From an uncultured Nitrososphaerales archaeon (GTDB lineage Archaea > Thermoproteota > Nitrososphaeria > Nitrososphaerales > Nitrososphaeraceae), in NCBI GenBank assembly GCA_963695855.1, contig CAVOHZ010000010.1, positions 1,741,657-1,805,656 of the forward strand: a DNA stretch of 64,000 bases. Direction: 5' to 3'. Position 1 is the stretch's first letter. Each line of letters begins with the position of its first letter. A model generated the notes under the pieces. The model was not told the DNA's origin. It searched no databases and worked only from the letters and a program-made list of their open reading frames with translations. Position numbers and translations under genes: made by a program. Below are positions 31,393-53,387 of this stretch, piece after piece.

Positions 31393-31465
31393 ATCCGAAG
31401 CGCCGGGAGTGGGACTCGAACCCAGAAGGAGTACACCTGGGTTTGTTCGATATCACTAGAGCAAT
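31382..31465 (+). repeat. att junction: A arm, 23-bp tRNA-derived core, B arm
   Basis: Core gcgccgggagtgggactcgaacc (31400-31422) is the reverse complement of a tRNA T-arm plus acceptor strand (Ser most likely, Asn possible); exact copy at 53342. Confidence 0.9.
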
Positions 31466-31670
31466 GAATTAATGAATTATTATTTTAAAAAAAGAAAAAA
31501 ATGTTGTCGATTGATATATCGGCTTATTCAACTTGTCTATTACGAAGTACCTGAAGGTAAAAAGAACGAATTTAAGACAATCTTTGAATTATTTATTAAA
31601 TCTAAAAAATAAAATAACAGCATAAAAAACGAGTTCTTCATATACTATGAAGACTAATACAGAGTAAATA

Positions 31671-31943
31671 ATGACGACAGAATTCAGTTATCATTATTTG
31701 CCATATTGTGTTGCTATTTTCTTTCTTTTTTACTCTATGTTTTTATTGTTAGTCCACGGGGAATTTGAACAAGAAGAAGACTATTCAAACATGGATATAT
31801 ATGGAAACATATTTTACAACAATATTGAGGACGAAATCTTGGACACTGAACAACCCGTTCCAATGAATACCACAGAACTGATAGAAATAGGAAAGAATCT
31901 TACAATTATCCATAACCCTTCTACTGGAAAATATTTTCAATAA
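31671..31943 (+). CDS. MxTEFSY small secreted protein, copy 2
   Basis: Near-identical to 3525..3794. Confidence 0.7.
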   Translation: MTTEFSYHYLPYCVAIFFLFYSMFLLLVHGEFEQEEDYSNMDIYGNIFYNNIEDEILDTEQPVPMNTTELIEIGKNLTIIHNPSTGKYFQ

Positions 31944-32068
31944 AGACAATTGATTTTATTTATAGTGTGGCTAGAAAGATTGGAGGGATTGAAGCGTTGA
32001 ACTTCCGTGATATCCAGATGTGGCCGCAGATGTTATACTGAAAGGCGTCTACCTTGATTATTGTGATC

Positions 32069-32182
32069 TTAGTGGTATTCACTCACACGTTTACCGCAGT
32101 AAGTACATTTTAAAAGTCTACCGTAATTTGTAGCGTAAGACAACTCTCGCATGTTTCCTTTATTGCATTTTTTACAGCTCAT
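32069..32182 (-). CDS. 37-aa zinc-ribbon microprotein
   Basis: Manual translation MSCKKCNKGNMRELSYATNYGRLLKCTYCGKRVSEYH, two CxxC motifs. Confidence 0.6.
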   Translation of the reverse strand: MSCKKCNKGNMRELSYATNYGRLLKCTYCGKRVSEYH

Positions 32183-32496
32183 TCTTTTTAATCCCGTCCT
32201 TGTTGTTCTTCTTGTTGTTCTCGTTCGTTGTTATCCTCTTCTTCTGTTTCATCTTTATGTTCTTGTTGAATTGATACAACTGGAATAGGGCCTTTGTCTT
32301 CTGCTGGATTGTCCACTGGTTTTTGTTGTTGCTGTTGTTCTTGCTGGTTCTTTAGTGATTGTTGTCTATATGGTGTATCGTCAAAGTATACTTGTTGTAT
32401 TGGTTGCTGTTGCTGCTGTTATTCATGTAGCTTAATTATTATTTATTTCATTTTAAAATAAAATATTTTTAATATACAAATTAATAATTATTTATC

Positions 32497-32706
32497 GTGG
32501 TAAAATCACACCCTGGAGTAGACAGTTTACTTACCAATATTAGACGGGTTATTCCACCACGTAGAACTATGGAAATAACAGAAGAGACTTTCAAGGTATT
32601 GAAGGAACATGCATCTAAACATTATTCAAGTCCCCGTTATGACGAAGTGTTAGTTAATCTGGTCAAGTTCTATGAGAGTAATGACGGCCCAAAACATTAT
32701 GATTAA
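32497..32706 (+). CDS. Small RHH/antitoxin-like DNA-binding protein
   Basis: TMEITEETFKVLK..YDEVLVNLVKFYE. Confidence 0.65.
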   Translation: MVKSHPGVDSLLTNIRRVIPPRRTMEITEETFKVLKEHASKHYSSPRYDEVLVNLVKFYESNDGPKHYD

Positions 32707-33087
32707 TGAGAAAATAAAATAAAAAAAATAAAATAAAATATTAAAGTATAAAATAATAAATAAATAAATAAATAAATTTATTTAAATAAAGTAAAACTTA
32801 AGTACTACAAGGAAAAGAAAAGAACATAGTAAACCATTTATAAAAAAGAAATTGTTTTATAGATTCTATTTGGAAATGGAACAGTTCTTCTATTTAAAAT
32901 TGAAATGAATTGGTCAAAATATCACAGAATGATGATTAATAATACATTAGTATTACTTGACTGTTATAGTTTAATATTTTAAATTGAAAAGGCTCATATA
33001 AAAAAAGGGAGAATTGAGATAGGTTATTAAATTCTATCTATAGTTTTTAGTAGGTTTATTGAGTATATTGTTCTAGTATTAGTCAAT

Positions 33088-33849
33088 CTAATTTGGTGGG
33101 AATCCAAATTCTGCTGCTAGACAATCTTCTAAGGCTTGTTGTCCTCCTACTCCTAAATCTAGCTGTGCTTGGTCTATAACATTTTGGACACCGTTTTCCA
33201 ATATACCACGTGTTGGTGCAAGATCAAGTACCTGACATAGTTCTGTTAAACTATGAACTACGAATACATTTGCTACTAAAGTTATAGATATTCCTGGATT
33301 CTCTAATGTGTCTATTAGATTTTGAGCATTCTGCGCTGGGTCAGGAGAATTAGCAATTGCAGTTATAAAGCATCCTTCACATCCCTCTATCTCTATAGGT
33401 GGTCGTTGTGGGAATTGAACCTTCAGTTGATCGTTGTCATTCACATTTACACATATGTTTACCAGGTTCCTGTCGAAGTTTATTTTATCGAATGCATTAC
33501 CATTCTGTGAATTTGCCGCGTTTGTTCCTTCTTCTCCTTCATCTGCTGCTGCTGTAGTAGCAAAATCGTCTTCAGGTATTTCGGTGATATCTACACCGTT
33601 TACATTTATGTTACTGTTCACACACTTTATTTTCTGTATATCTCCATGAGAACTCTTTTTTTCATGGTTATCATATCCGTATCTATTGTCGTCTTGGTAA
33701 TAGTTGCTATCATATCCGTACTGGTGGTCTCCGTACATTTGTGCACCTGCACTTGTAATTGTTGATGGGTTTAGAGCCAGTATACTTGTCGCTAGTATTG
33801 CTCCCAGTATAGAAGCAAAAACTATCATTCTGTTTTTATTATTGCTCAT
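33088..33849 (-). CDS. Secreted CVNSNINVNG-family protein
   Basis: Constant module plus CEGCF..ELC..DCL tail. Confidence 0.85.
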   Translation of the reverse strand: MSNNKNRMIVFASILGAILATSILALNPSTITSAGAQMYGDHQYGYDSNYYQDDNRYGYDNHEKKSSHGDIQKIKCVNSNINVNGVDITEIPEDDFATTAAADEGEEGTNAANSQNGNAFDKINFDRNLVNICVNVNDNDQLKVQFPQRPPIEIEGCEGCFITAIANSPDPAQNAQNLIDTLENPGISITLVANVFVVHSLTELCQVLDLAPTRGILENGVQNVIDQAQLDLGVGGQQALEDCLAAEFGFPPN

Positions 33850-33990
33850 TACCTTCTTAAATGCAAATTTATTATATCTAAGGTTAGAAGGAACGTTATC
33901 CGATTCTGTAATATTTCAAGATTCTGAATCATTGACTATAAGAAGAATAGCAATTGATTTACAAGTACAATATGAGGTATTGTAATAATA
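33850..33990 (-). promoter_or_regulatory. Conserved upstream element copy
   Basis: Matches 14432-14570. Confidence 0.7.
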
Positions 33991-34064
33991 TTATGTGTTG
34001 GATTATAGTAAGTTAATTAATTCAAAATAAATAAAAAAGAAAAAAAGAAATGAGGGAGTTTCTT

Positions 34065-34844
34065 CTAAAGACAAATTGGGGTAAGAGCACAATCTGGGTC
34101 TTCACAATCTATCATATCATCATCATCAATTCCATTATTACATATTTCTATTAGTTCTAATACTCCAACCCCTACTAGACAATCCACTGTTGACGTAACT
34201 TGCTCTGGAGTTATATCAGGGAGACCTCGTAAAGCGTTCACTACTGTTCCAGTTTCTATTGGGCCATTAGGGTTGTCTTGTAGAATTTGACATGTTTCTG
34301 TAAATGTATTTCCTAGACGAGAATTGGCCATAAAGAACTGTTCTTGTTCTGAATTTAGATTATCAGTAAAGCAATCTTCACATGTCTCTTCTTCTTCTGG
34401 CGGTGGTGGAGTAACTTTTACCTGTTCGTTGTCATTCACATTTACACATATATTTACTAGGTTTCTCTCGAAGTTTATTCTATCTGCAAGTCCGTTACCA
34501 TTTTGAGTATTTGCTCCTTCTGCTGTTCCCGCTTCATTTGCTGCTGCTGCAGTGGCAGTACTGTCTTGAGGTATTTGGGTAATATCTATACCGTTTACGT
34601 TTATGTTACTGTTCACACACTTTATTTTCTGTATATCTCCATGAGAACTCTTTTTTTGATGGTTATTGTCATAACCGTACCTATTGTCGTCTTGATAATA
34701 GTTATTATCATATCCGTATTGATTGTCGTACATTTGTGCACCTGCGTTTGTAATTGTTGATGGGTTTAGAGCGAGTATACCTGTTGCTAGTATTGCTCCC
34801 AGTATGGAAGCAAAAACTATAATTCTATTATTACTATTGCTCAT
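34065..34844 (-). CDS. Secreted CVNSNINVNG-family protein
   Basis: Constant module, CEDCF module and an EICNNGIDDDD.IDCEDPDC Cys/Asp motif. Confidence 0.85.
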   Translation of the reverse strand: MSNSNNRIIVFASILGAILATGILALNPSTITNAGAQMYDNQYGYDNNYYQDDNRYGYDNNHQKKSSHGDIQKIKCVNSNINVNGIDITQIPQDSTATAAAANEAGTAEGANTQNGNGLADRINFERNLVNICVNVNDNEQVKVTPPPPEEEETCEDCFTDNLNSEQEQFFMANSRLGNTFTETCQILQDNPNGPIETGTVVNALRGLPDITPEQVTSTVDCLVGVGVLELIEICNNGIDDDDMIDCEDPDCALTPICL

Positions 34845-34975
34845 TACATTGTTAAATGCGAATTTATTATATCTATGGTTAGAAGGAACATTATCTAATC
34901 TTGTATTGTTTCAAGATTCTGAATTATTGACTATAAGAAGAATACCAATTGATCTACAAGTACAATATGAGTTGT
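34845..34975 (-). promoter_or_regulatory. Conserved upstream element copy
   Basis: Matches 14432-14570. Confidence 0.7.
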
Positions 34976-35099
34976 TATAATAATCTCAAGAATTATATTT
35001 TGTTAGTTTGTTAGTTAATTAATTGCTAAGAATTGGTACAAAACAAAAAATAAAATAAAAAAGGGGGTTGCTCCTTTGACATGCTAATTCCCATTTATT

Positions 35100-35933
35100 T
35101 TAAGGTATCGGTGATGAGATTGTAATTGAATTTGTTGCTGTACAGGTCTGTGCTTCTCCCGCCGTTATTGTTCCTGTTGTTTGATCATTAGTAGGATTGA
35201 TGACTTCATCACAATCTCCTGTAAATGATATAATAAGATTGACTATGCGGGGGATTGGTTCGTCATGAGAGTCGTTAAAATCCTCGAATATCTCTCGTGC
35301 CTGCGTGATTATTTCTGTTACTTCATAATCACCTGGATTCAACGTTACGACTGTTCCAGTAGTAGAACCGGTAAATTGAGAAGATGGATTTGGATTGTTA
35401 CCAGTCACTTGGAAAAGAAAATCACTTTCATCTAACGTTGATAGTAGGTCTTCACAATCATTTGGAAATTCGTTTGATTCTTCTGTACACTCAATTTGTT
35501 TAGCAACCGTCAAAGTCGTTTCTGGCGGTGGACTAACTTTTACCTGTTCGTTATCATTCACATTCACACATACGTTTACAAGGTTTTTCTCGAAGTTTAT
35601 TTTATCAAAGCCATTTTCATTTTGTGCGTTTGCTGCCTCTGGACCCGCTCCCTCATTTGTTGCTGCTGCAGCAGTAGCAGTAGTGTCTTCAGGTATTTGT
35701 GTGATATCTACACCGTTTACATTTATGTTACTGTTAACACACTTTATTTTCTGGATATCTCCATGAGAACTCTTTTTTTTATGGTTATTATCATATCCGT
35801 ATCTGTTGTCGTCTTGGTTTCCGTACAATTCCGCTTGTGCGTTTTCTATCATCGTTGATGGGCTTAAAGCCATTAGACCTGCGGCCACTATCACTGCGAT
35901 AGAAGCCAGAACTATCTTTGTCTGATGGGTCAT
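35100..35933 (-). CDS. Secreted CVNSNINVNG-family protein with Ig-like module
   Basis: Constant module plus TLTVAK..GNNPNP..QTCTATN. Confidence 0.85.
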   Translation of the reverse strand: MTHQTKIVLASIAVIVAAGLMALSPSTMIENAQAELYGNQDDNRYGYDNNHKKKSSHGDIQKIKCVNSNINVNGVDITQIPEDTTATAAAATNEGAGPEAANAQNENGFDKINFEKNLVNVCVNVNDNEQVKVSPPPETTLTVAKQIECTEESNEFPNDCEDLLSTLDESDFLFQVTGNNPNPSSQFTGSTTGTVVTLNPGDYEVTEIITQAREIFEDFNDSHDEPIPRIVNLIISFTGDCDEVINPTNDQTTGTITAGEAQTCTATNSITISSPIP

Positions 35934-36065
35934 TACATTGTTAAATGCGAATTTATTATATCTATGGTTAGAAGGTACATTATCTAATCTTGTAATATTT
36001 CAAGATTTTGAATTATTGACTATAAGAAGAATAGAAAATGATGTTTAGGTAGAAAGTTAAAACTC
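35934..36065 (-). promoter_or_regulatory. Conserved upstream element copy
   Basis: Matches 15737-15870. Confidence 0.7.
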
Positions 36066-36174
36066 CTAGATAGAAAAAATCGTACGAGAACGACAAGTAA
36101 TATGGGTTGAGTAACAATTAGACTAATTAAATTTCGTTAAAAAAAAGAAATAGAGGGTGGTTGGAGTAGGTGTT

Positions 36175-36966
36175 TTACGCTGGAGGGAAAGTACCTACAT
36201 CTCTTAGACAATCAACAATCGCATCTATATCTGCCTGTTCTATACTAGCAATACTATCAAGTTCCGATCTAAGGGCTTGTTCATTTTTGAATTGGTCAAG
36301 TATTAAACAATATCCGTCAAGATTCCGTGATGGAAATCCTGCTAAGAACGTTGCTAGATCCGCTTCTTCTTGGTCGTCTAAGATACTTGTAAAGCAGTCT
36401 TGACATGTTTCTGGGGGTGGTGGGAATAGTACTGGTAATAATGCTTTTTCGAAACAGTCAAAGAGACCTATTACAACTCTATCGATATTTGTATTTGTTT
36501 GTAATAGTACAGCATCTTCTATTATTTTCAATGCATCTACAGGAGTTACTGTTTCAGTTACAAGAGAATCAAGAGCAAGTTCTAGGTTTTTACAGATATC
36601 AAATAGTTGTGCGGTATTATACTCAGCGTTAGGTGATCCGGTCGTTAAACATGTTGCTCCCGAAACTGTTGATGTGGTATCATCTACACAATTAATACTA
36701 TCAAAATTAACAAAATTTATTGCATTAATCAATGCATTAAGAAGGGTACCTGTTTGTGCAGCATTCAAGAAATGTAACCAATACTTTACACATTCTTCAC
36801 ATATTATTTGTTCATCCGTTAACTCAGGTGGAAGTACTGTGGGGGGATCTGCTGAAGCTTGATTAGTGGATACCTGCATTGCCGATATCGGCTTTGACAT
36901 GTTCATGGTAGTTGCCAAAAAAAGCATAACTACTAGAGAGAGACCTAAGATATTTGATTTGTGCAT
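36175..36966 (-). CDS. Secreted Cys-rich protein with two CxxC helical modules, lacking the constant module
   Basis: Signal peptide; CEECV..DIC..DCF and CQDCF..YC..DCL. Confidence 0.8.
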   Translation of the reverse strand: MHKSNILGLSLVVMLFLATTMNMSKPISAMQVSTNQASADPPTVLPPELTDEQIICEECVKYWLHFLNAAQTGTLLNALINAINFVNFDSINCVDDTTSTVSGATCLTTGSPNAEYNTAQLFDICKNLELALDSLVTETVTPVDALKIIEDAVLLQTNTNIDRVVIGLFDCFEKALLPVLFPPPPETCQDCFTSILDDQEEADLATFLAGFPSRNLDGYCLILDQFKNEQALRSELDSIASIEQADIDAIVDCLRDVGTFPPA

Positions 36967-37187
36967 TGTTCTATTACTATCTTATATATATATTAATCTA
37001 GGGACACATTTTTCTCTAAATTTATGACAAAAATTATTTTCAGTCAGTTACTATAAAATAATTAAGAATATAATATAATAGAAATCTTATAAAAAGATTA
37101 AAGTTTAGATATTTCTAGTATTTTCATTAATTAAATTAATTACTAATATACTAAAAAAGAAAAAAGAGGTTTAGGTTTCTACCTATA

Positions 37188-37901
37188 TTACGCTGGCTCT
37201 ACAATTATTCCCAAATCTTCCAAGCATTGTAGGATGATGTCTCGGTCCTGTTGAGATACACCTTGACTATTTAGTGTGGTGTTTAACAATTGCCATTTCT
37301 CGGTAGATGATATTGCTGTGGATGTCTCTAGAAATTCACAAAGATCTGCAAGTGTATTTATATCTATTTCTTCTCCTGTAGCAGAATCAACAGTCTGATC
37401 AAAAATCATCAAGAAGCCTTCAAGATCTTCCTCACTTAGAATTGAAAAACAGTTTTCACATGCTTGATCTTCTTCTGGAGCAATAGTCTTTATCTGGTTG
37501 TTGTCATTCACATTTACACATATATTTACTAGGTTTTTATCGAAGTTTATTTTATCAAGTCCGTTACCATTCTCTGAATTTGATGCGTCTGTTGCTCCAG
37601 CTCCTTCATTTGTTGTTGCTAGGGCACTAGAGCCTTGAGGTATTTCTGTAATATCTATACCATTTACGTTTATGTTACTGTTTACACACTTTATTTTCTG
37701 GATATCTGTATGAGAACTCTTTGAATCTTTTTTATCATAACTATATCTATTGTCGTCTTGGTAATAGTTATTGTCGTGCCTGTATTGATTGTCGTACATT
37801 TGTGCCTGTGCATTTCCTACCATTGATGGATTTAGAGCCAGTAGACCTGCGGCTACTATCACGGTGATAGAAACCAGAACTGTCTTTGTCTGATGGGTAA
37901 T
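37188..37901 (-). CDS. Secreted CVNSNINVNG-family protein with ATT in place of the start ATG
   Basis: Homologous start reads ATT ACC CAT CAG; the frame is otherwise intact, with a CENCF module. Confidence 0.75.
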   Translation of the reverse strand: MTHQTKTVLVSITVIVAAGLLALNPSMVGNAQAQMYDNQYRHDNNYYQDDNRYSYDKKDSKSSHTDIQKIKCVNSNINVNGIDITEIPQGSSALATTNEGAGATDASNSENGNGLDKINFDKNLVNICVNVNDNNQIKTIAPEEDQACENCFSILSEEDLEGFLMIFDQTVDSATGEEIDINTLADLCEFLETSTAISSTEKWQLLNTTLNSQGVSQQDRDIILQCLEDLGIIVEPA

Positions 37902-38050
37902 TACACTGTTAAATACGAATTTAATATATCCAAGGTTAGAAGGAACATTATCTAATCTTGTAATATTTTATCATGCTGAATTATTGACTATAAGAAGAAT
38001 AGAAAATCATGTTAAGGTATAAAGTGAAATCCTAGTACTGCAGCAAGTAA
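37902..38050 (-). promoter_or_regulatory. Conserved upstream element copy
   Basis: Matches 15737-15870. Confidence 0.7.
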
Positions 38051-38131
38051 CTAAAAATATTTATCCTAACCCTTTCTTATTTCAATCGTTGTTATGTTAG
38101 GGGAACCAGAAAACTAAATAGTCTTCATAAA

Positions 38132-38311
38132 GTGGACCAGGTTAGGGTTATTCAATTAAACGAACAGACATACCAGAGATTAAGGAATCATTTTAATGAA
38201 TTTCACTGCGGACCAGAAGACTTACGCAATAATAAAGTTACTACCTATGACGACATAATTATCAAGATATTAGACTTCGAAGAAAAAAATCGAGATAAGT
38301 CTTATTATTAG
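38132..38311 (+). CDS. Small RHH/antitoxin-like protein, absent from the ORF track
   Basis: Manual translation ..VIQLNEQTYQRLRNH..TYDDIIIKILDFEEKNRDKSYY; start uncertain. Confidence 0.6.
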   Translation: MDQVRVIQLNEQTYQRLRNHFNEFHCGPEDLRNNKVTTYDDIIIKILDFEEKNRDKSYY

Positions 38312-38675
38312 TTACCAAAAAAGTTCTCTATCCTTGAACACTTAAATACGAACACTTAAATAACTGTAATGGTATATTATAATTAACACTAAAATCTCTA
38401 TAATGTATTTTTGCGGCACTAACCTTATTAAATCTAATGCAGAGAGAAAAAAAGAAGTATATGACATAACCTATGGAGAATCTTCACGCCCATTTAGTGG
38501 ATAACTTTCACGAACAAAATAATTGTAAGTGTTATAACAGTAGTAAATAAATAAAAAGTAGGTTATAACGTATAACCTTTGTAGTTTTTATTATCCGGTT
38601 TCTCTAATGTAGGAACCTTGACGATATTATCAGAAGACTACTGGATTTTTATGATAGTAAGGGGAAATCACAGAA

Positions 38676-39164
38676 ATGACTACTAGAGACGACGACAATA
38701 ATAACAATAACGATGAAGAACGTAAGGTAATTCTGGATGAAGAAGGTCAGGTAATAATTCTGGACCCTAAGCGTAATAAGATAATTGAATTTGTATTCGA
38801 ACAGGGCGGTAAGGAAGGTAGTAGAAGAATATACATTGATGAAAAATGTCGTTGGTATTGTATAGCCGCTTCTCTGAAAGATGCGAAAGAAGGTAGGGGT
38901 AAATTCTATAAATATACTGATTTAGGCAGAAAATTATTGTTGGAAGTTTTCGCTGAATTAGATAAAACAGGTCATTTTAATGATAAAGCGATCTATAAAT
39001 ATACTGATTTAGGCAGAAAATTATTGTTGGAAGTTTTCGCTGAATTAGATAAAACAGGTCATTTTAATGATAAAGCGATAGAAGAAGATTACTTCTCTGA
39101 TATTGTGGTTAGAAAGTGTATTGATATGATCAAAATCAAAAAGGACCTATCAGATCTTAAATAA
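38676..39164 (+). CDS. Hypothetical protein with an exact 87-bp internal duplication
   Basis: YKYTDLGRKLLLEVFAELDKTGHFNDKAI twice (38905-39079). Confidence 0.65.
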   Translation: MTTRDDDNNNNNDEERKVILDEEGQVIILDPKRNKIIEFVFEQGGKEGSRRIYIDEKCRWYCIAASLKDAKEGRGKFYKYTDLGRKLLLEVFAELDKTGHFNDKAIYKYTDLGRKLLLEVFAELDKTGHFNDKAIEEDYFSDIVVRKCIDMIKIKKDLSDLK

Positions 39165-39289
39165 AATTTCAATTTTATTAAATATTTAATATTTTTTTAT
39201 ATGCAATATAATTTTTTAAATAGACTTTTATTCTAATCTTCTTTTATTTTCTTTGTATGGATGGTGGTGGTCCGTTACGTGGTGGCTGA

Positions 39290-39487
39290 TTGGGTAGAGT
39301 TGTAGGGGAAACAAAAGAAGGGAAATTAATTCAGATAGAAAATGAGACTTTTGAAAGGTTAAAACAACATAACCGACATTATAATCATGATGATGGGAAT
39401 GTTAGTTCATTTGACGATATTATTGTTAGAATGCTAGATTTCTACGAAGAGAATGAGAAAAATAATGAAAGATGTTATTATTTATGA
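39290..39487 (+). CDS. Small RHH/antitoxin-like protein
   Basis: LIQIENETFERLK..SFDDIIVRMLDFYE. Confidence 0.65.
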   Translation: MGRVVGETKEGKLIQIENETFERLKQHNRHYNHDDGNVSSFDDIIVRMLDFYEENEKNNERCYYL

Positions 39488-39623
39488 TTATTATTATATC
39501 CATTATTCAATATCTTGAAAGGATTGAGACAGTAGAAAATTTTATTTAGGACAAAAATGGAAACTAAAAAATAGAAATAAGAATAGTCAAAATCTTTTTT
39601 ACAGAGGTGACTATCCTTATCTT

Positions 39624-41005: not shown

Positions 41006-41048
41006 AACATAATGAAGAATATGTTAAGAAATTATATTCTTTGTCTAC

Positions 41049-45398: not shown

Positions 45399-45552
45399 TC
45401 TTAGTTTTTCCTTCTCAATATTTATTTAGTCTCATTTACTTTTGTCCTTTTCGTGTCTTTATACTTTTTGAAACTACGCCAAATCTTAGTTGCAATAACA
45501 ACTGTTGTAATCTCTACAGCTAAAATAGTGCATAATAAAAGATTTTCAAATG

Positions 45553-46845
45553 TTACCATTCTAGTTTCTTCCTTTCCTCCATTGATATTCTCTTTTTTGC
45601 TGTCTCAAATTTTTCTTTGTTTATCTCTATACCTACGAACTTTCTATTCAATCTTAATGCAGCCACTCCATTAGTGCCTGATCCCATCATCGGGTCCAAT
45701 ATCGTAAGATTTTCCAAAGTTAAATTTTTGATAATATATTCTGCTTCTGTTGTAGACTGTTCCCATGGATGTAGGGCCTTATCCATCTGTGGACGTGTGG
45801 ATTCAATAAAGTCGCCCATTGTACTAGACATTACCGACTCGTTAGGTCCACCTCCTTTCACATACCATAACATAGGCTTCCATTCTGCAAATATGTGTCT
45901 TGCATGCACCTTTGAATGATTTCCAGAATGTTTAACACAAAAAATCCACCAGTACTTTAGATTGTCAGTATTATCGCCAATTATCTGTATAACTTTCTCA
46001 AGAATTAAATGGCCTGTAAAAAAGACCAGACTACCCCCTGGCTTGAGTAATCTATCAGCTAACCAGCCTAGAGCTTCATAAATGCCAAGTGCTTCATAAC
46101 TGTAAGGCGGATCCGTAAGAATTAGGTCTATAGTGTTATCCTGTATCTCATTCTTTGCTATTTCCATGAAGTCTCCATGAATTAGCCTATAATTCTGGTT
46201 ATTGTTATTACTTGATTCACTAATACCGATATTAGACAAAAATTCCTGTCGCTTCCTATCCTTTCTAATCTTCTCGTATTCTTTATTTATTGTGCTTTTA
46301 CCTTTCCATAATCTTTTTAATTGTTCTTCCGTTCCGTATTCTCTAACTTTCTTATAACGTATGTAGGTACTCGGAGAAAGTCCTATTGTTTTAGATATTA
46401 TTTCAGACGTTTTACCCTTGTCGTTGTCGTTAGTGTCATTTGGCACTAACGACGAGATTATTATTTTGTTCTTTACATTTCGTAATTTTGATAACTGTCT
46501 TATTCTTGCTTTCTCGCTTTCTATATTCTCAAGTTCAAATCCGAGTTCTGCTTTTTGTGCTGCGTTTAACTGTCTTCTCTGTAGGTTAATTTCAATAACA
46601 AATTTTTTCTCTTCTAACTTGTTATCAGATTTCCTAATCTCATATGGTGGTTCGATACCTTCTTCTTTACCTATATCGAATCTGTTATGTCCGTCCAGAA
46701 TTTCCCTGTTCTCATTTACTATTATAGGACGATAAAATCCATTTTCCTTTATTGACTTTCTTAATGCTTCCTTTTCTGCAGGTAACAAAGCAGGAACCAG
46801 TTTTTCATATTCTGGATTTTTTCTGATTTCTAAATTAATTGTCAT
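45553..46845 (-). CDS. ParB-N domain fused to an N6A/N4C DNA methyltransferase (beta order)
   Basis: SIKENG..PIIVN..ILDGHNR; LILTDPPY precedes ILDPMMGSGT. Confidence 0.88.
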   Translation of the reverse strand: MTINLEIRKNPEYEKLVPALLPAEKEALRKSIKENGFYRPIIVNENREILDGHNRFDIGKEEGIEPPYEIRKSDNKLEEKKFVIEINLQRRQLNAAQKAELGFELENIESEKARIRQLSKLRNVKNKIIISSLVPNDTNDNDKGKTSEIISKTIGLSPSTYIRYKKVREYGTEEQLKRLWKGKSTINKEYEKIRKDRKRQEFLSNIGISESSNNNNQNYRLIHGDFMEIAKNEIQDNTIDLILTDPPYSYEALGIYEALGWLADRLLKPGGSLVFFTGHLILEKVIQIIGDNTDNLKYWWIFCVKHSGNHSKVHARHIFAEWKPMLWYVKGGGPNESVMSSTMGDFIESTRPQMDKALHPWEQSTTEAEYIIKNLTLENLTILDPMMGSGTNGVAALRLNRKFVGIEINKEKFETAKKRISMEERKKLEW

Positions 46846-46848
46846 TAT

Positions 46849-47934
46849 CTAAAAAAACTCCTTCATGTTTTGGTTATTGACCAGTATAGAGTACAAATTA
46901 CTATGATTGGATTTTATCTTCTCCCTGGACATGGGTCCGTACTGTTTGCTGTGTGCATATTTTATTGCGAGATTGATTCTGTAGGTAAAATTACTATCTA
47001 GTTTCCTGATTTTATCGCATTTATCCAACCATTGTTTAATTAAATTAAATGATTCTTCAAATGACAAACCTTTTACTTTGACAAGATAACGTGAGAGAAT
47101 TAGATCCGTTACTAGCTTCCTGCAGTCTTCTATTCCCGTCTCCAGTAATTTATCGATCCATTCATAATATTTTGAGTCAAAATTATTATTTGGATTTTGT
47201 TTACGATTCTGCTGTTCTATACTGCATCTAATTATTAACTGGTCGATTTCATTCCTTTTCAATTGATTTAGGAATTCTAAAACTAATGATTTGGGTACTC
47301 TCTGCCTTTTACCATTCCACTTTTGCAGTATCTTTACTTTGCCGGTACTTCCATTCTTTGAGTTTATGGTGTTCGGTACTCTCAACAAGCAGGACCTAAA
47401 CCCTGGAAAATTACCTTTGTCCGCATTGTTATCCGATAGGAAATCTTTACAGAATCTCAGAAATTGTTCAGAAGGTTTATCGTAATCGTCAAAATCTGGA
47501 ACATATTCTAAGGCCTTGGGAAAGTCTAACGGTTGTATCACATGGTAACCCCTTCCACTCCATAAAACGGTAGGAGTTGCAGTTTTGTCTTTTAGAAATA
47601 GCTGAATGTTAGATAGAGTCTTCGATAGTGCAGAATCCAAACCCATTCTAGAATAAAAGTTTTCAAGATCTAGATCGATAAACAAAATGTCAGGCTTCCA
47701 GGATAAACCAAAATCCAAATAGGAAAAGTAAAAGGAGTTAATTCTGCAGTCGGTAAACTGAGAACGTTCAAAGAAGTATAATGCTTCTTCTTTTGAATTA
47801 ACCTGTTTTTGTTTTGTCTTGGGTGTCATTATTGTTCTTGGGAATTGTGGACCCGTTAAGTGCGATAATATGAATTCCAACCCTTCTTTTATTTCCGTAG
47901 GTGCTGCAGTCATTGTTATCTGGTGGTGAGTCAT
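46849..47934 (-). CDS. AEP primase fused to a PriX-like domain
   Basis: FIDLD, SGRGYH, LLRVPNTIN; WIDKLL..I.D.RKL..DLIL tail; paralogue of 24791..25945. Confidence 0.85.
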   Translation of the reverse strand: MTHHQITMTAAPTEIKEGLEFILSHLTGPQFPRTIMTPKTKQKQVNSKEEALYFFERSQFTDCRINSFYFSYLDFGLSWKPDILFIDLDLENFYSRMGLDSALSKTLSNIQLFLKDKTATPTVLWSGRGYHVIQPLDFPKALEYVPDFDDYDKPSEQFLRFCKDFLSDNNADKGNFPGFRSCLLRVPNTINSKNGSTGKVKILQKWNGKRQRVPKSLVLEFLNQLKRNEIDQLIIRCSIEQQNRKQNPNNNFDSKYYEWIDKLLETGIEDCRKLVTDLILSRYLVKVKGLSFEESFNLIKQWLDKCDKIRKLDSNFTYRINLAIKYAHSKQYGPMSREKIKSNHSNLYSILVNNQNMKEFF

Positions 47935-48182
47935 CTCCTTCCCCTTTCCTTTCTCCTGAATCCATCAGCGTCAAAATATAGGAAATTATTCTCTTTCAAA
48001 AAAGGGAATAATTTTTTATGTTGTTTTTTAGAATTTGTTGAAATATTTTTAATTAGTATATATACACTTGGGGTTTTTGTTGTAAATACTGCAGATTTAG
48101 GGGGGTCAAAAATAGTCCCCCAGAGATAGGGTATTTTAGAAAAAATATTTTTTTGACTTTCTTGTGCGTTATTGTTAGTCAA
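47931..48182 (-). CDS. Small basic ORF between ATPase and primase (may only be origin DNA)
   Basis: Overlaps both neighbours in an operon-like way; contains the 40-bp repeat. Confidence 0.4.
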   Translation of the reverse strand: MTNNNAQESQKNIFSKIPYLWGTIFDPPKSAVFTTKTPSVYILIKNISTNSKKQHKKLFPFLKENNFLYFDADGFRRKERGRR

Positions 48183-48749
48183 GGGTTTCTACACTCCCTT
48201 CTTTCTCCCAGTAATTCCCCCTGAACTCTACATGTAATCCAGGTTCGAATTTTTGAGCTTCAAGTATAAAGTCCTTCGTAGGCCTGATTGGTATTAATGG
48301 GTCGTCTTTCCGGTGTACTTTGATTACATGTTCTGTGTGTGTATCATCTGTCGAAAATGCCTTGGTACAGAAGTTACACATGTATTGGCCTTCGACGTCT
48401 TCGCCTTCTTCTTTGGGTTCTGATTCTTGTTTCTTTTCATCAGCAGCAGCTGTTTCAGCTGCATCAGCAGTTGTCTGTTCTTCTTTAATTATGTCGTCTT
48501 CGTTTCTTTCTTCAAAATAGTTTTCAGGATTGCTGTAATACTGGTTAACTAGCTGATCTACAGTTATCTCTTCATCTGCATGATTTTTTATTTTTACAAA
48601 ATACCCTATCTCAGAATACCTATTTAAAATTCTGTTAAATTGGTTAACTATAAATACTTGATTGGGAAATATTGCAGAATTTACAACAATCTTCTTCATT
48701 TCTTGTGAGAAATTATTCCCTTTATCAAAAGAGAACAATTTCCTATATT
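47975..48749. repeat. 40-bp inverted repeat pair (47975-48014 and 48710-48749)
   Basis: 36/40 identity by manual alignment; each copy is quasi-palindromic. Confidence 0.75.
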
Positions 48750-50232
48750 CTTTCGTTTCTATGATTGGGTAATAAATATTATTTCGTTTGTCTATCTGAC
48801 TCTCTAGCTTATCGATATAACCATTGTTGTGAAGTGGGTCAATATACGATTTTGAGAGTTTCTTGCCGATTATGGTTTCTCCGTGTACCTGTTTATGTCT
48901 CTTTATCAGGTCCGCAGAAGTTACGGCAACCCTTACTTCTTTCAGTTCTTCGCCCCTACTATTTACTTTTGAATCTGTGACATCACATTTGCTTTGGTAT
49001 GTTTTCTGAAAGACATCGTAGAACCATTCGAGTACAAAAGGCCTTACACCGTCGGAATACTCGGTTAACCAGACAGTTCTTTGTAAATCTTCAAATGTTG
49101 CAATCGGCCTTATTGATTTTGATAAAACATTATCTTCTTCACCGTCTTTGTAGACTTCAAGTCTTGGCCTATTCGAAAAATAGATACTGGGTAAGATTCC
49201 TAGATATGCATTAATTCTATTAGCTCTTGTCATATCTTCGGCTTTTACTTTTGGCAATGAACTCTTCAATAGCTCCTTAAACGGAGTTATTACGTTCTTT
49301 TTGCCTGGTTTTATGTTCTCATTGATATGTAGTATCTGTTCTTTCAAACCCTGGATTATGTCCCTTGCAATGTCTTTTTCTTTGTCACTCACTACGTCGG
49401 CCTGATAGATTTCATCAGGAACAGAACCCATATCGCAAATATGGTTCACTGCGTCGTTAAATTTGTCCAGCGACATAGCGGGGTTTGTTGTGATAAACCT
49501 TCTTTGAATTTCATTGTATCTTGGCGAATCGCTATAATCTAATGCCTGTGCAATAATGACAACAGGCCACCCCCTTAACACGTTGGTTTGTGTCGTGATA
49601 CCGTTATGCGTATCCGTGTATTCGTATTGGATTTCGTATTCGTCATGACTCAACAAAGGTAACATTTGAATAATCAATCGTTCCGGCGGGGTATCGAGAA
49701 ACACCAGGATTTTATTTTCTAAATCTATAAGTTTCTTAGAATTCTTCAGTAAATCGCGTCTTGCCTTTTCAAGTTCCTTTATTTTACTCTTTAAATCCTG
49801 TTTTACTTCTTTATCTTTCTCTAATGATAATTCGCTTTCTTTGTCGAAAATAGCATCATTCAATGCACTTAATTTCTCTTCTATAGACTCGTGTTGTTCA
49901 GTCTCTTCATTCCATACAACAAGCTCGCCTTTTCTATGAAATAATGCCTTTTCTGTCATTCCTGAAAGGACTGAAATATCCGATTTTGGAAATACTGCAG
50001 CGACCTTGTTTATGACGTAGTTTTTGCCTACTCCACTGGGTGCATTGATTAGTAAGTTAATGGGATTCTTGCTGTAGGCCGATAATTTTGTTATTAATAG
50101 TTGGTTAGTTAATCTATTCTCTCTTTTTGCTTCTAATAATACTATTTTAGTGACGTAATCCAGTTCGTTTAATTGTAGACTTTCAGAAGGCATATTATTG
50201 TCTGCGGCGGCAGCGGTGTTCTGCTGTGACAT
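48175..50232 (-). CDS. AAA+-like ATPase, putative helicase, with C-terminal C2H2 finger
   Basis: NAPSGVGKN Walker A, LVFLD, IQRRF Arg finger, CNFC..H...H. Confidence 0.75.
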   Translation of the reverse strand: MSQQNTAAAADNNMPSESLQLNELDYVTKIVLLEAKRENRLTNQLLITKLSAYSKNPINLLINAPSGVGKNYVINKVAAVFPKSDISVLSGMTEKALFHRKGELVVWNEETEQHESIEEKLSALNDAIFDKESELSLEKDKEVKQDLKSKIKELEKARRDLLKNSKKLIDLENKILVFLDTPPERLIIQMLPLLSHDEYEIQYEYTDTHNGITTQTNVLRGWPVVIIAQALDYSDSPRYNEIQRRFITTNPAMSLDKFNDAVNHICDMGSVPDEIYQADVVSDKEKDIARDIIQGLKEQILHINENIKPGKKNVITPFKELLKSSLPKVKAEDMTRANRINAYLGILPSIYFSNRPRLEVYKDGEEDNVLSKSIRPIATFEDLQRTVWLTEYSDGVRPFVLEWFYDVFQKTYQSKCDVTDSKVNSRGEELKEVRVAVTSADLIKRHKQVHGETIIGKKLSKSYIDPLHNNGYIDKLESQIDKRNNIYYPIIETKEYRKLFSFDKGNNFSQEMKKIVVNSAIFPNQVFIVNQFNRILNRYSEIGYFVKIKNHADEEITVDQLVNQYYSNPENYFEERNEDDIIKEEQTTADAAETAAADEKKQESEPKEEGEDVEGQYMCNFCTKAFSTDDTHTEHVIKVHRKDDPLIPIRPTKDFILEAQKFEPGLHVEFRGNYWEKEGSVETLD

Positions 50233-50385
50233 AGCTAGACAGCATTACACCTTCCCGTAGGTAATGTAATGAGTGTACAAACTGGACGGGAAGGGATAGA
50301 AGCAAAAACCCTGAAATTGCGGTATTTTCTTCCATTTTTCATGGAAAATGTATTTATCGGAGAAAAACTAGATATCATTTACAGT

Positions 50386-50625
50386 CTACTCCTGTGGTGT
50401 GAGTTCGCTGTTCGTCGTTATTGTTGCCCTTGTTACCATGTGGGCGACACTTTCTTTTGTATCCTCTCCAAGGGGATTTCGAAAACTTTGATTCTTTAAT
50501 TTCATGCGAGAAATTTCTAGTATTTCATCAATACAGTTTTTGCAGACGTTAGGAGGATATTCTAATACTGTGTATGCAATAATAAAAGGCAGATTTTGTT
50601 TTTTGTCTAATTTTGAAGAAAACAT
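50386..50625 (-). CDS. Hypothetical protein of the replication operon
   Basis: 79 aa, 1 bp downstream of the AbrB gene. Confidence 0.5.
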   Translation of the reverse strand: MFSSKLDKKQNLPFIIAYTVLEYPPNVCKNCIDEILEISRMKLKNQSFRNPLGEDTKESVAHMVTRATITTNSELTPQE

Positions 50626-50626
50626 A

Positions 50627-50812
50627 CTAAAAATTCTCCATTTTTTCGATTGTGATTTTATTATCGGTTAAAAGGACTGATAGATAATCACCCTTGTCTA
50701 TATTGAGCTTTTTAGTAAATTGCTTCGGTAGAACAAAAGTTAGGGATCTTTTATCTGTATAAGACTGTACTTTTCTGACCACTTTTTGTTGTATGATTTG
50801 GGCCTGGTCCAT
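50627..50812 (-). CDS. AbrB/MazE/SpoVT-family regulator
   Basis: RKVQ..SLTFVLPKQFTKKLNIDKGDYL..KITIEK. Confidence 0.85.
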   Translation of the reverse strand: MDQAQIIQQKVVRKVQSYTDKRSLTFVLPKQFTKKLNIDKGDYLSVLLTDNKITIEKMENF

Positions 50813-50885
50813 TTACATGTAATACTCGTTTATCATAATTTTTATATTAGAATCTGACCAAATTATAAACGGAAACACGCATAAA

Positions 50886-51821
50886 ATGTACTATAAATCG
50901 AGAATTGTTAGCAAAAATCTGACGAATCTAACACGTAAGCAGGTTTTAAAAATTATTGCTGAAAGTCCCAATCCTCTCTCTTCTTATCAAATTCATAAAG
51001 AATGGATGAAAAGACATTCTCCTGGAAGTCCGAACCGCTATATTTATCAGATTGTCAGGGATTTGTTCAAGCCAGACGGAAACAAGAGACATATTCAGGC
51101 TATGAAGGGTTTTCTGAGAATTTCCTACAAAGAAAAGTATGAAAAAGAAATTTCTCGATTAAGGCAACGCTTTGGGATAGGAGTTGGAAAAAAATATTCT
51201 GACTATGGAAACGTGAGAGTTATAGTTTATAAAAATGCTAAGGAGGAGATGGATAGAACTCGTGCCATTCTCAAAATTGGTGATATGATGAGAAATATCA
51301 GATATTATAGATACAGTCTAAATTTCAAAGGTTTTTTGTTATATCTATTAAGCTCGTATGATGACTATGAAGAAATCTATGATGATAAAATAAGTGAAAA
51401 ACGGAACAATATTAGAACAGTATATCAGGTTATTAAAATTCTGACAACAAGAGAAGACGATATTAAAGATGAATTTGAATTCTTGCGTTATTTTAATGTG
51501 TTTGACGAAATATATGGTACAAAAGAATTTGTAAGGACTTTATTGGATATTGCTAATGAATTACGCTATCAACTAGAAATATTGACATCAGAATACATAC
51601 AATATTACTTTATGAGACGTTGTTACGAGGAAGTAATGATACGTATTACATTCATAAACCTTAACCCCTTTAAATCTTGGCTAAAACAAAAAGACAGAGA
51701 TAATATCAAAAACGAGCATTCAAAACTTGAATTGTCCAGGATCCAAATTCTAAATATATTGATACGACTACAAAAAGAACAGTTGAAGATAATGGAAGAG
51801 GATTTGAAACAAAATATCTAG
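50886..51821 (+). CDS. Hypothetical protein with wHTH-like N-terminus (putative regulator)
   Basis: QVLKIIAE..PLSSYQI..YQIVRDL; same position as 28527..29690. Confidence 0.6.
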   Translation: MYYKSRIVSKNLTNLTRKQVLKIIAESPNPLSSYQIHKEWMKRHSPGSPNRYIYQIVRDLFKPDGNKRHIQAMKGFLRISYKEKYEKEISRLRQRFGIGVGKKYSDYGNVRVIVYKNAKEEMDRTRAILKIGDMMRNIRYYRYSLNFKGFLLYLLSSYDDYEEIYDDKISEKRNNIRTVYQVIKILTTREDDIKDEFEFLRYFNVFDEIYGTKEFVRTLLDIANELRYQLEILTSEYIQYYFMRRCYEEVMIRITFINLNPFKSWLKQKDRDNIKNEHSKLELSRIQILNILIRLQKEQLKIMEEDLKQNI

Positions 51822-53278
51822 TGATCGTTTTCTGGTTTACGTGTCTGTTCCCATTTTTCAAACTTCTGCAGGATTTTAACCATAGTATCATCATGTTTTT
51901 TCATTGATTCCTGTTGTTTTGTCATCTGTTCTTTCATCATCTGCAGTTCTAGATTTTTCTGTTTTTCATTTTCTAATATCACCCGATAGGAATCATAAGA
52001 CAGAACCATCTTGCATTTTATACAGAATTTGGAATCTTTCTTGTTGGGTTCATTGCAATTATAACAGTAAGTTGATTTTAGTAAATTTGATTTGTCTCCA
52101 TTGTTGGAATCTTTTTTTACAAGACCCCTTGCCTCAAGAATGGAATTAACAGATTCGTTACCCAGATAATGTAAATAAATCTGTGGCATTTTGCTAGACA
52201 TGGTCCAACCTGCATGATTTCTCAATACATGTTCTTTCAGAATAAGACTTTTCTCAGTGAGGGAAGAATGACGTAACACGTAAGGGTTCCAGGGTTTTGT
52301 TAACATATTTCTGATATGAGATTTATCTGAATTGTGTACTGTTTGTTCGCCATCTATTTCGTCTTTAAGTAAATTGGGAAAATATACAGGTTTATAATAT
52401 CTGCAGTACTTGAACCTTAAACCGTCATAAGTTAATTTTTTTCCAAATGTTCTGTAAGTCTGCGAAACGAATAACCATGCGTTAGGATTTTCGGATGTTG
52501 GATGTGTATTTTGTAAGTAGTCTTTAAGATATGGAATTGAATCTATTAAAGGAACAGTTCTGGACCCAGTTTTCCCACCATTAATGTGAAGTTCGGCATA
52601 CTGCTTTCCCTCTTCTGTTATCTTCAAAGTAATATCTTTTAGCCTTAAGTTCAAGAGTTCGTGAGGTCTGGCAGAGGTATCGATTGCCATTGCGTGGAAT
52701 GCCTTATCTCTCTTTGAGGGACAATATTTCAAAAATACTGCATGTTCTTCATTGGTCCACAAATCGGAATTTTTGTAAAGTGTCTTTTCCTTTCTTGATA
52801 GTTGTTTTACTCCCTTCATTACCACAGGAGTAATCCTTTTTCTCTGGTCCGGTTCATCAGGATTATACAGCCATCTGAAAAATTTGTTTAATATTATTTG
52901 TCTGACGTTATAGGTTCCGATCCATTTTTGTGATTCATCCTCCAGTGTAGTTTTCTTTAAACTATCCAAATAACCCAGGATATCGTCTTTTGTCATTTCT
53001 CTAAACAGAATTTTATCATGAAAGAAATTTGATAACCAAGCAAGAACCTTTATCCTAGTTTCTATAGTAGAAATTTTTATATTTATTTCCGTTTTTTCAG
53101 CAATTATATAATTACAGATATCTCTTGCATTTTCTGGATTTCTTTGAGCAAGTTTTAACAAAGTATCTTTATAATATGATATAGATAGGGATTTGGTAGC
53201 TGTTTCTATCCTTTTCTGTAAGACATCGATATTGTTATACTTCTGTTGTTCTTGTTCTTGTTGCTGATTTGGAGTCAT
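51818..53278 (-). CDS. Tyrosine integrase with C-terminal zinc ribbon
   Basis: SARPHE, GKTG, YVLRH, HAGW, PQIY; CYNC..CIKC. Confidence 0.93.
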   Translation of the reverse strand: MTPNQQQEQEQQKYNNIDVLQKRIETATKSLSISYYKDTLLKLAQRNPENARDICNYIIAEKTEINIKISTIETRIKVLAWLSNFFHDKILFREMTKDDILGYLDSLKKTTLEDESQKWIGTYNVRQIILNKFFRWLYNPDEPDQRKRITPVVMKGVKQLSRKEKTLYKNSDLWTNEEHAVFLKYCPSKRDKAFHAMAIDTSARPHELLNLRLKDITLKITEEGKQYAELHINGGKTGSRTVPLIDSIPYLKDYLQNTHPTSENPNAWLFVSQTYRTFGKKLTYDGLRFKYCRYYKPVYFPNLLKDEIDGEQTVHNSDKSHIRNMLTKPWNPYVLRHSSLTEKSLILKEHVLRNHAGWTMSSKMPQIYLHYLGNESVNSILEARGLVKKDSNNGDKSNLLKSTYCYNCNEPNKKDSKFCIKCKMVLSYDSYRVILENEKQKNLELQMMKEQMTKQQESMKKHDDTMVKILQKFEKWEQTRKPENDH

Positions 53279-53324
53279 CTTGTCCTAATTGAAGTTTTGA
53301 CATTGTTATTATTAAAAATATAGT

Positions 53325-53387
53325 ACAAACCCAGGTGTACGGCGCCGGGAGTGGGACTCGAACCTTCGTCCATCAAATGTGGGTTCT
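53325..53387 (+). repeat. att junction: B arm, core, A arm
   Basis: acaaacccaggtgtac g gcgccgggagtgggactcgaacc ttcgtccatcaa atgtgggttct. Confidence 0.9.

Follow-up and report, generated by a model that had tools for sequence, protein, structure and literature searches.

Among described elements, one of the closest to the locus studied here is NitKor-E1 of a marine thaumarchaeon, which carries genes for the small (TerS) and large (TerL) terminase subunits, an integrase, VapBC, and a restriction enzyme, and which the authors regarded as a probable relic (Krupovic et al., 2019; PMC6563490). In the sections of that paper available to us, TerL is reported from only five thaumarchaeal genomes. We analyzed a 64,000-nucleotide stretch (the window; positions 1,741,657 to 1,805,656 of contig CAVOHZ010000010.1, assembly GCA_963695855.1) from an uncultured soil archaeon of the Nitrososphaeraceae, of the ammonia-oxidizing type, and describe here an element at 31400-53364, termed element 2, with a length of 21,965 bp. 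Its sequence marks it as a tRNA-integrated element with defined borders, which brings modules for integration and replication and a portion of one for packaging (TerS-like and TerL genes) but no full virion module. Like NitKor-E1, it is integrated, encodes a tyrosine integrase, has TerS directly upstream of TerL, and shows no other tailed-virus gene; unlike NitKor-E1, which we compared by its description in those sections, it encodes a probably MCM-like ATPase, a primase of the archaeo-eukaryotic primase (AEP)-PriX type, and a ParB-methyltransferase, and not VapBC and a restriction endonuclease. An initial sequence-only reading of the window had mentioned stand-alone terminase genes and cryptic elements in the Nitrososphaerales, and one TerS-TerL case is indeed in print, that of the marine NitKor-E1, as far as the available part of that paper goes. 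We consider it possible, with a probability of roughly 45%, that element 2 lives as a satellite, or hitcher, of head-tailed viruses, to which it contributes two terminase subunits of its own and no shell.

The phage-inducible chromosomal islands (PICIs) share with element 2, in the descriptions consulted in part, a layout of integrase, divergent regulators, primase/helicase, packaging gene, and accessory genes, as well as the lack of tail genes, and the size relation is also PICI-like (22 kb for the element versus 22-99 kb for related viral contigs). PICIs are bacterial, whereas element 2 is archaeal, and the likeness described here is one of layout. Classical PICIs encode either TerS or a capsid-size factor and depend on the helper for TerL, whereas element 2 has its own TerL; capsid-forming PICIs (cf-PICIs) carry a whole head module, and the combination of TerS and TerL without portal or capsid corresponds to neither arrangement. 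Tycheposons target tRNA genes and carry a tyrosine recombinase, a primase/helicase, and either cargo or capsid/TerS genes, but never both, according to the available part of the source (Hackl et al., 10.1101/2020.12.28.424599). Likened by the gene content given there, they resemble element 2 in their tRNA targets, in arrays with partial tRNA copies, in the tyrosine recombinase and primase/helicase, and in host-benefit cargo or packaging genes. However, they occur in marine cyanobacteria, and the PICI-like ones have a capsid protein or TerS without cargo, whereas the archaeal element 2 combines a TerS-like gene, TerL, and 12 kb of cargo.

In archaea, the only satellites known earlier were pSSVi and pSSVx of spindle-shaped viruses, to which satellites of haloarchaeal spindle viruses have been added, and the portion of that report available to us describes no satellite of head-tailed archaeal viruses (Zhou et al., 2025; 10.1101/2025.02.15.638363). 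By the same portion, pSSVx/pSSVi and SRCEs are similar to element 2 in joining a plasmid- or element-type replication module to an incomplete virion or packaging module, but they are parasites of spindle viruses with an AAA+ ATPase and/or a spindle-virus capsid protein, unlike element 2. The tailed viruses of Nitrososphaerota found in IMG/VR (contigs L016-L020) have a TerL of the same lineage as the elements and a gene at the TerS position upstream of it; portal, capsid, minor head, and neck genes follow TerL in these viruses, whereas cargo stands there in the elements. Our literature search, which covered full texts (subscription journals and supplements lay outside its scope), found no capsid-less TerS-TerL family in Nitrososphaeraceae. 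The presence of both terminase subunits without a capsid is the distinctive feature of element 2 among cryptic integrated elements and virus satellites.

The borders of element 2 are defined by the 23-bp repeat GCGCCGGGAGTGGGACTCGAACC, and the exact direct repeats claimed by the sequence-only reading for both ends were confirmed at 31400-31422 and 53342-53364, with no other match in the window when as many as three mismatches are allowed (0.00 expected). Since each core adjoins a matched 16-bp inverted arm (Table 1), 31400-53364 is a single integrated unit. The integrase lies 64 bp from its core. The core is the reverse complement of the T-arm and acceptor 3' end of a tRNA gene that is intact elsewhere in the window's genome (G000; 3.55 Mb in 11 contigs, completeness 99.87%; the window lies at the end of its contig C10). 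There are five exact core places in G000 and 13 places at up to three mismatches, and C2:4436-4560 (minus strand) is the only one that runs into a full tRNA body. Read by hand, the target is tRNA-Ser(CGA); its variable arm is long, and one intron interrupts the anticodon loop and another the D-arm. ARAGORN and Rfam reported no tRNA in the window or at the attachment (att) sites, and both missed the tRNA at C2:4436 (ARAGORN also with introns allowed), recognizing the T-arm alone. A composition profile of the window showed no visible boundary. From the integrase inward, the family matches agree with the previously proposed backbone order of integrase, regulators, ATPase, AEP-PriX primase, ParB-methyltransferase, TerS-like gene, and TerL, followed by cargo.

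TerL of element 2 is read in two frames (355 and 140 amino acids), which are 93% and 88% identical to an intact 482-amino acid copy, P0121; relative to intact genomic copies, an A-run near 43920 is longer by one A. The extra base is missing from contigs of two soil metagenome runs. Because those contigs may derive from paralogous copies, the frameshift may be either a real recent mutation or an assembly error. TerL homologs are labeled PF03237 and PF17289, and in 28 sequences of 47-84% identity E188, D190, D317, and D374 show no variation and D187, D464, and D467 almost none; we take these positions to include the acidic Walker-B pair and the four nuclease aspartates. By tblastn, TerL occurs at 12 places on C10, four of which are single unbroken open reading frames (ORFs) of 443-482 amino acids; intact copies include those at G000:C10:1299886, 1495504, and 1525844. 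A fifth place holds an 828-amino acid fusion (G000:C10:478547-481033; L012:8548-11034, minus strand), in which the TerL ATPase half is 67% identical to residues 1-350 of the window TerL and the roughly 500 C-terminal residues are 25% identical to residues 176-676 of the 685-amino acid ATPase of element 2; if the DNA separating TerL from the helicase-like gene of the following tandem element were deleted, such a fusion would result. Two intact ATPase-primase-TerS-TerL modules also stand head to head, about 21 kb apart, at G000:C10:1495504-1500789 (minus strand) and 1521671-1527283 (plus strand), and neither a window-type integrase (by tblastn) nor a tRNA-Ser core was found near them.

The TerS-like protein belongs to a 43-member BLAST cluster that lies upstream of TerL in 37 loci. 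Its profile matches LuxR/GerE-type helix-turn-helix (HTH) domains, and its structure model (predicted local distance difference test, pLDDT, 81) gave small terminases as the top Foldseek rows, only at E 0.4, with VIA Z values of 8.3-8.5 that fall inside the helical background. Against viral genes at the TerS position, the profile reached an hhalign E of 0.05.

TerL relatives are numerous, with at least 2463 homologs at E <= 1e-3 among 8000 scored, and 177 of 224 candidate stretches from one-genome-per-species collections encode one. We kept 79 loci (numbered with L), nearly all labeled Nitrososphaeraceae or Nitrososphaerales, and a TerL ORF of 430-600 amino acids is present in 44 of them. A sample across the order contained TerL in 29 of 201 genomes: 24/40 in the window's family, 3/11 and 1/40 in two other families, and 0 elsewhere. 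NitKor-E1, in the available part of its description, is a single case, whereas here TerL is found at 12 places in one genome and in more than half of the family genomes sampled, and is under purifying selection. A single-sequence TerL scan of IMG/VR gave no relatives. On a 2.7-kb contig labeled as a Brocadia metagenome-assembled genome (MAG), L021, we observed a TerL 61% identical to the window family together with a partner gene of about 230 amino acids; this contig is probably mis-binned, since all other close relatives are labeled Nitrososphaerales.

The upstream genes were surveyed at the 74 loci with a TerL call, 55 of which have room upstream. A TerS-like gene, from one of three BLAST clusters, is among the three preceding genes in 29 of the 55, and at least one backbone-type gene was found upstream in 17 by BLAST clustering. 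Integrase, PriX primase, TerS, and TerL occur together in L036 only (1/55); at other loci, TerS-TerL is joined to D5-like primase-helicases, PolB, other helicases, or a second integrase type. These linkage counts are lower bounds, because of the BLAST clustering and the short MAG contigs.

No capsid, portal, protease, tail, or conjugation family was matched by any of the 29 ORFs in 31400-53364 (Pfam and PHROGs; NCBIfam for 17 of them), in agreement with the earlier observation that no portal, capsid, tail, or conjugation gene is recognizable, and stop-to-stop frames in the gaps held nothing of portal size. The genes after TerL encode P-II and a cupredoxin-like protein, not a portal. Searches of the whole G000 genome with the sequence profiles PF05065, PF04860, and phrog_267 gave no match (for PF06074, the control gave no match either), nor did tblastn with the portal-size and head proteins of related viral contigs. 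Viral contig proteins other than TerL are nearly without tblastn matches in the 79 loci, with a capsid-region protein matching L093 only. Around these loci, none of 200 ORFs of at least 230 amino acids (one per BLAST cluster, already-named clusters excluded) matched a major capsid or portal PHROG at E <= 1e-5, and the weak virion-type rows came from L041 (peptidase-like), L079 (a repeat protein), and L077 (protease/lysozyme-like). In the control, five IMG/VR contigs with related TerL (L016-L020; 33-40% identity), head genes do follow TerL: L020 has a Mu-type portal (25.5 bits; cut-off 23.9), an HK97-type capsid (phrog_267, 4.3e-13), and a neck protein, and in L016 a minor head protein was found. 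Proteins of portal and capsid size in L016-L018 went undetected in these scans. Structure models cover two proteins, the 685-amino acid ATPase and the TerS-like protein. At the level of sequence profiles, element 2 is capsid-less.

The ratio of nonsynonymous to synonymous substitution rates (dN/dS) was estimated for five genomic TerL copies in ten pairwise comparisons. It is 0.07-0.18 in four pairs and 0.39 in one, with dS saturated in the remaining five, and the in-frame part of the element 2 TerL gives 0.086 against an intact copy. On these ratios, TerL is under strong purifying selection. Viral TerLs are 33-50% identical to those of the elements, and in a FastTree phylogeny of 37 TerLs the four viral rows are divided between two starred clades that lie among the element rows, one grouping L016/L017 with the G000 copy at 1495504, L045, and L079, and the other grouping L019/L020 with L097. 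A quick IQ-TREE run of 47 rows, without L016-L018, agrees on L019/L020. Both trees are unrooted and contain few viral rows, and 16 near-identical rows were left out of the FastTree phylogeny. Thus, in the comparison of TerL with viruses that the sequence-only reading had proposed, viral and element rows interleave, and the archaeal tailed-virus lineage is shared. The second-type TerS, found in the neighboring element 1, is also homologous to the gene directly upstream of TerL in a 99.7-kb viral contig.

A protein of about 135-160 amino acids with two Cys pairs, probably a zinc ribbon by its sequence, is encoded after TerL in two viral contigs and nine element loci that share a BLAST cluster (e.g., L010:6830-7309 on the minus strand, and L011:13480-13965, L016:7887-8306, and L017:11586-11990 on the plus strand). 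In element loci, it usually adjoins a conserved protein of about 230 amino acids without family match (e.g., L010:5469-6149, minus strand). Both genes are absent from element 2. Selection, the tree, and the TerS and zinc-ribbon links together suggest that the terminase module is maintained and has been repeatedly exchanged with tailed viruses, while single copies decay.

The remaining backbone genes would provide integration, regulation, and replication. The element 2 integrase is 56% identical to that of element 1. The divergently oriented 311-amino acid ORF is a candidate master repressor, with a winged-HTH-like N-terminal region; this role is suggested by the divergent layout and the sequence. 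The 685-amino acid ATPase has 251 homologs, of which the named ones are all labeled Nitrososphaeraceae, and carries the precomputed label PF27228, a family named after a methanogen plasmid gene. Sequence profiles of PDB gave no match to it; with its structure model (pLDDT 69), the top 50 Foldseek rows are all MCM chains (best E 2.4e-7, TM about 0.3), and the modeled fold suggests that it is probably an MCM-like replicative helicase or initiator. The PriX domain of the primase is matched by Pfam (2.5e-14; 53.8 bits, cut-off 25), NCBIfam (2.9e-21; 75.7 bits, cut-off 50), and PDB entries 4wyh and 5ofn (1e-8 to 6.5e-14). Its N-terminal half, for which residues 1-250 gave no significant profile match in Pfam or PDB, conserves DxD (FIDLD), SGxGYH, and RIPGSxN stretches, which we take to be AEP motifs, and the Atlas leads are DNA_primase_S and Prim-Pol clusters (0.92-0.93). 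Among 34 proteins, PADLOC matched one, the methyltransferase, to orphan/type II methyltransferase models only.

Table 1. Coordinates of elements 1 to 3 and their features in the window.
Feature	Position	Strand	Remarks
Element 2: integrase-proximal arm ACAAACCCAGGTGTAC and att core	53325-53340 (arm), 53342-53364 (core)		arm is the exact reverse complement of 31434-31449
Element 2: tyrosine integrase, 486 aa	51818-53278	-	Pfam Phage_integrase 2.6e-7; phrog_1 1.9e-24
Element 2: 311-aa ORF	50886-51821	+	no family match; divergent from the AbrB operon
Element 2: AbrB/MazE-fold protein	50627-50812	-	Pfam MazE_antitoxin 1.6e-6
Element 2: 79-aa ORF	50386-50625	-	pairs with AbrB; small regulator pair
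Element 2: 685-aa P-loop ATPase	48175-50232	-	NAPSGEGK and LVFLD stretches conserved
Element 2: AEP-PriX primase	46849-47934	-	PriX domain by Pfam, NCBIfam, PDB
Element 2: ParB-like nuclease domain fused to N6/N4 DNA methyltransferase	45553-46845	-	Pfam N6_N4_Mtase 8e-16; phrog_67 7e-42; phrog_12047 1.6e-17
Element 2: TerS-like protein, 165 aa	44901-45398	-	directly upstream of TerL, overlapping; N-terminal HTH, then two long helices
Element 2: TerL	43519-44965	-	phrog_2 E 3e-19; split into 43898-44965 (ATPase and nuclease start) and 43519-43941 (rest of nuclease)
Element 2: cargo region, ~12 kb	31671-43480		host-like
Element 2: P-II	42971-43324	-	
Element 2: transposase tail	42615-42875	+	
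Element 2: cupredoxin-like protein	41669-42514	+	
Element 2: 162-aa ORF	38676-39164	+	perfect 87-bp tandem duplication at 38905-39078
Element 2: five tandem paralogs, secreted Cys-rich proteins, 224-277 aa	33088-37862	-	
Element 2: 16-bp arm GTACACCTGGGTTTGT	31434-31449		inverted partner of 53325-53340
Element 2: att core, integrase-distal end	31400-31422		doubles as integrase-proximal core of element 1
Element 1: backbone	20302-31392	-	family matches
Element 1: integrase	29803-31392	-	
Element 1: 387-aa ORF	28527-29690	+	
Element 1: ribbon-helix-helix (RHH) protein	28308-28475		
Element 1: 694-aa ATPase	25955-28039		
Element 1: AEP-PriX	24791-25945		
Element 1: insertion sequence (IS)-type HTH ORF	23080-23448		
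Element 1: second-type TerS	21282-21893		
Element 1: TerL pseudogene	~20344-21216		
Element 3: partial, runs off the contig	53365-64000	-	distal arm ATGTGGGTTC after core
Element 3: cargo	53764-54213 (cupredoxin)		also USP and SBF transporter
Element 3: decayed TerL	~62114-63109		
Element 3: TerS fragments	~63143-63864		

The locus as a whole reads as a tandem array that ends at the tRNA gene and comprises three or more related elements, element 2 being the middle one. The sequence-only reading had noted a second copy of the backbone, and in that copy (element 1) the gene order is the same, but the ParB-methyltransferase is absent, an IS-type HTH ORF is present, and TerL bears a stop. Beyond it, a further decayed TerL/TerS (~62114-63864, in element 3) lies at the contig end. 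The TerL of element 1 has an in-frame stop, with its first ~190 residues unmatched, and that of element 3 has many stops and frameshifts. The final 300 bp of element 1 match 43480-43779 at 92% identity. Element 1 is truncated or rearranged, because its integrase-proximal att has no matching distal partner in the window. Element 3 probably continues, as its sequence suggests, in G000:C2:1-4460, which holds an integrase 90% identical to that of element 1, a core, and the intact tRNA. Matched arms are present in elements 2 and 3. The other integrase type has a second arm type, with GAACCCACAT 5' of the core at 31384-31393 and at C2, and ATGTGGGTTC 3' of the core at 53342 and at three further genomic sites; related arms stand beside further core copies in G000.

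Two further observations concern the array. The frame of the element-1-type integrase (29803-31452, minus strand; L014:2809-4461) stays open through the att core, which is translated as GSSPTPGA, and in the C2 integrase copy the longest ORF begins inside the tRNA gene because the frame is open across the core. On the left of the array, a ~480-bp repeat with dozens of copies makes up most of the flank, and the native flank could not be located from relatives; the repeat (L110:5381-5859 in genome G012; more than 40 places in G000, on most contigs; 72-88% identity) looks like a miniature inverted-repeat transposable element or an IS end.

A Hel308-type helicase gene adjoins the intact tRNA, and the pair is syntenic across the genus (sites in L101-L111). 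The core is present in 23 of 25 genomes of the genus, mostly in more than one copy. In G012 the core occurs once, at the syntenic tRNA, so that its site shows no duplicated core. In G010, a 12.75-kb insert stands between two cores at the syntenic tRNA and contains only an integrase fragment and cargo. The 3-methyladenine DNA glycosylase of this insert (L111:9055-9672) shares 91% protein identity with window 11005-11634, compared with about 70% for the neighboring core helicase of G010, and therefore interspecies transfer of cargo is suggested; on these identities, cargo may move between species of the genus.

The cargo of element 2 is varied. Its Cys-rich paralogs have signal-peptide-like N-termini, linkers rich in Tyr, Asp, and Asn, and Cys-rich C-termini, and their family has dozens of copies in G000, often beside the TerL-distal ends of elements. 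Three other TerL loci of G000 have homologs of the 162-amino acid ORF nearby (81-99% identity). Several cargo pieces are 92-98% identical to other places in G000, and cargo content varies among element copies.

Element 2 is best explained as belonging to a family of integrative elements that target tRNA-Ser in archaea of the Nitrososphaeraceae type. Were element 2 a satellite of head-tailed viruses, a signal, probably infection by a tailed virus, would relieve the repressor, the integrase would excise the element as a circle, and the MCM-like helicase and AEP-PriX primase would replicate this circle. TerS would then recognize the element's own DNA, and the element's TerL would dock on the helper portal and fill helper procapsids with element DNA. 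Purifying selection and the interleaving with viral TerLs favor such a satellite-like role over a relic, and we regard the idea as plausible on sequence evidence. We are more hesitant about the wider proposal, tentative as it stands, that these are the first satellites of head-tailed archaeal viruses and follow a new satellite strategy, in which a complete terminase matched to the helper portal, without a shell, moves the elements and up to tens of kb of host-type cargo between soil archaea of the ammonia-oxidizer type.

Several points weigh against a satellite of this kind. To our knowledge, no satellite with TerL but without a capsid is known, and no helper virus was identified. The earlier description of element 2 as complete has to be withdrawn, as its TerL is frameshifted and, judged by their reading frames, the TerLs of both neighbors (elements 1 and 3) are pseudogenes; the element 2 copy appears at best just inactivated and is probably not functional, with its neighbors decaying. 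Elsewhere, 35 of the 79 loci are without a full-length TerL ORF, being split or at contig ends. The expectation of a family with a shared backbone held in part: TerS-TerL is widespread in capsid-less contexts, but the exact backbone recurs in few other genomes, with integrase, PriX primase, TerS, and TerL linked in one of 55 loci and any backbone-type gene present in 17. The TerS identity rests on position and architecture, because the fold and profile matches are not significant. Neither an excised circle, nor an attP junction, nor a particle-borne copy was seen in the contigs of four soil metagenome runs or in metagenome att scans, so that the circular-junction evidence envisaged at the outset did not materialize: compared with 34001-54000, the contigs showed no joint across the element ends (the best run is without cover at 53344-54000), and scans with the integrase-proximal arm plus core, and with the core plus inverted motifs, returned 0 stretches. 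All sequencing runs listed with this stretch were soil metagenomes, with no RNA run among them. Loose contig ends at ~43409-43462 were not counted as a sign of mobility, since paralogous G000 copies can produce them. For the ATPase and the primase, no relatives turned up when IMG/VR was scanned with sequence patterns. Finally, the capsid-less state is defined by sequence profiles, the sensitivity of which is limited, because they missed the portal and capsid of L016-L018.

The decay among these points would fit a cryptic element with a relic terminase, captured from or fused with a tailed provirus in the past, now functionless and decaying, and spread vertically or otherwise. TerL is broken in all three window copies, fragments and stop-bearing matches are common among relatives, and NitKor-E1 was read in this way in the available part of its description (PMC6563490). 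We nevertheless think a relic unlikely, although it deserves serious attention, given that the four lowest informative pairs have dN/dS values of 0.07-0.18 and the catalytic residues are conserved, that many genomes share this order of modules, in which TerL closes the backbone, without adjoining capsid remnants, and that G000 retains four unbroken TerL ORFs and a TerL-ATPase fusion among its 12 TerL places. Selection on TerL, in the face of neither head genes nor a helper being found, is also what would be expected if TerS-TerL served the element or host without capsids, as an anti-virus decoy or interference device, or as a nuclease/translocase resolving replication concatemers. The orphan methyltransferase and ParB-type nuclease domain on the same element are in line with this, as is the identity of up to 50% between viral and element TerLs, which is close enough for cross-interaction. 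However, the PADLOC defence models match the methyltransferase alone, the paired TerS-TerL operon has the layout of a packaging module, and we found no precedent in the part of the literature covered, which makes a capsid-independent role rather improbable in our judgment.

It is also conceivable, but very improbable, that element 2 is a true virus with capsid, portal, and tail proteins too divergent to recognize, their genes lying in the cargo or elsewhere as in a split arrangement resembling a gene transfer agent (GTA). The profiles did miss the portal and capsid of three viral contigs, predicted folds cover two proteins, and the secreted-protein family and the 162-amino acid ORF recur at the TerL-distal ends of several copies. 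Yet all backbone ORFs longer than 100 amino acids are assigned to replication, regulation, or packaging, the ATPase is the only ORF of portal size in 31400-53364, and the cargo paralogs are signal-peptide-like with dozens of G000 copies, in a cargo that differs among element copies.

Soil Nitrososphaeraceae are major nitrifiers, and little is known about gene movement among them. If element 2 and its relatives are satellites of head-tailed viruses, the satellite lifestyle would reach the head-tailed viruses of archaea, with a hijacking design unseen in bacteria, namely both terminase subunits without a capsid. This would also explain the mobile islands at tRNA genes that carry cupredoxins, P-II, transporters, and secreted proteins. 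Candidate helper lineages can be read from the TerL tree, and the intact copies offer proteins for testing. If the terminase is instead a relic or an interference device, the puzzle posed in 2019 by terminases in a non-viral element would become one at the scale of a family, not a single oddity.

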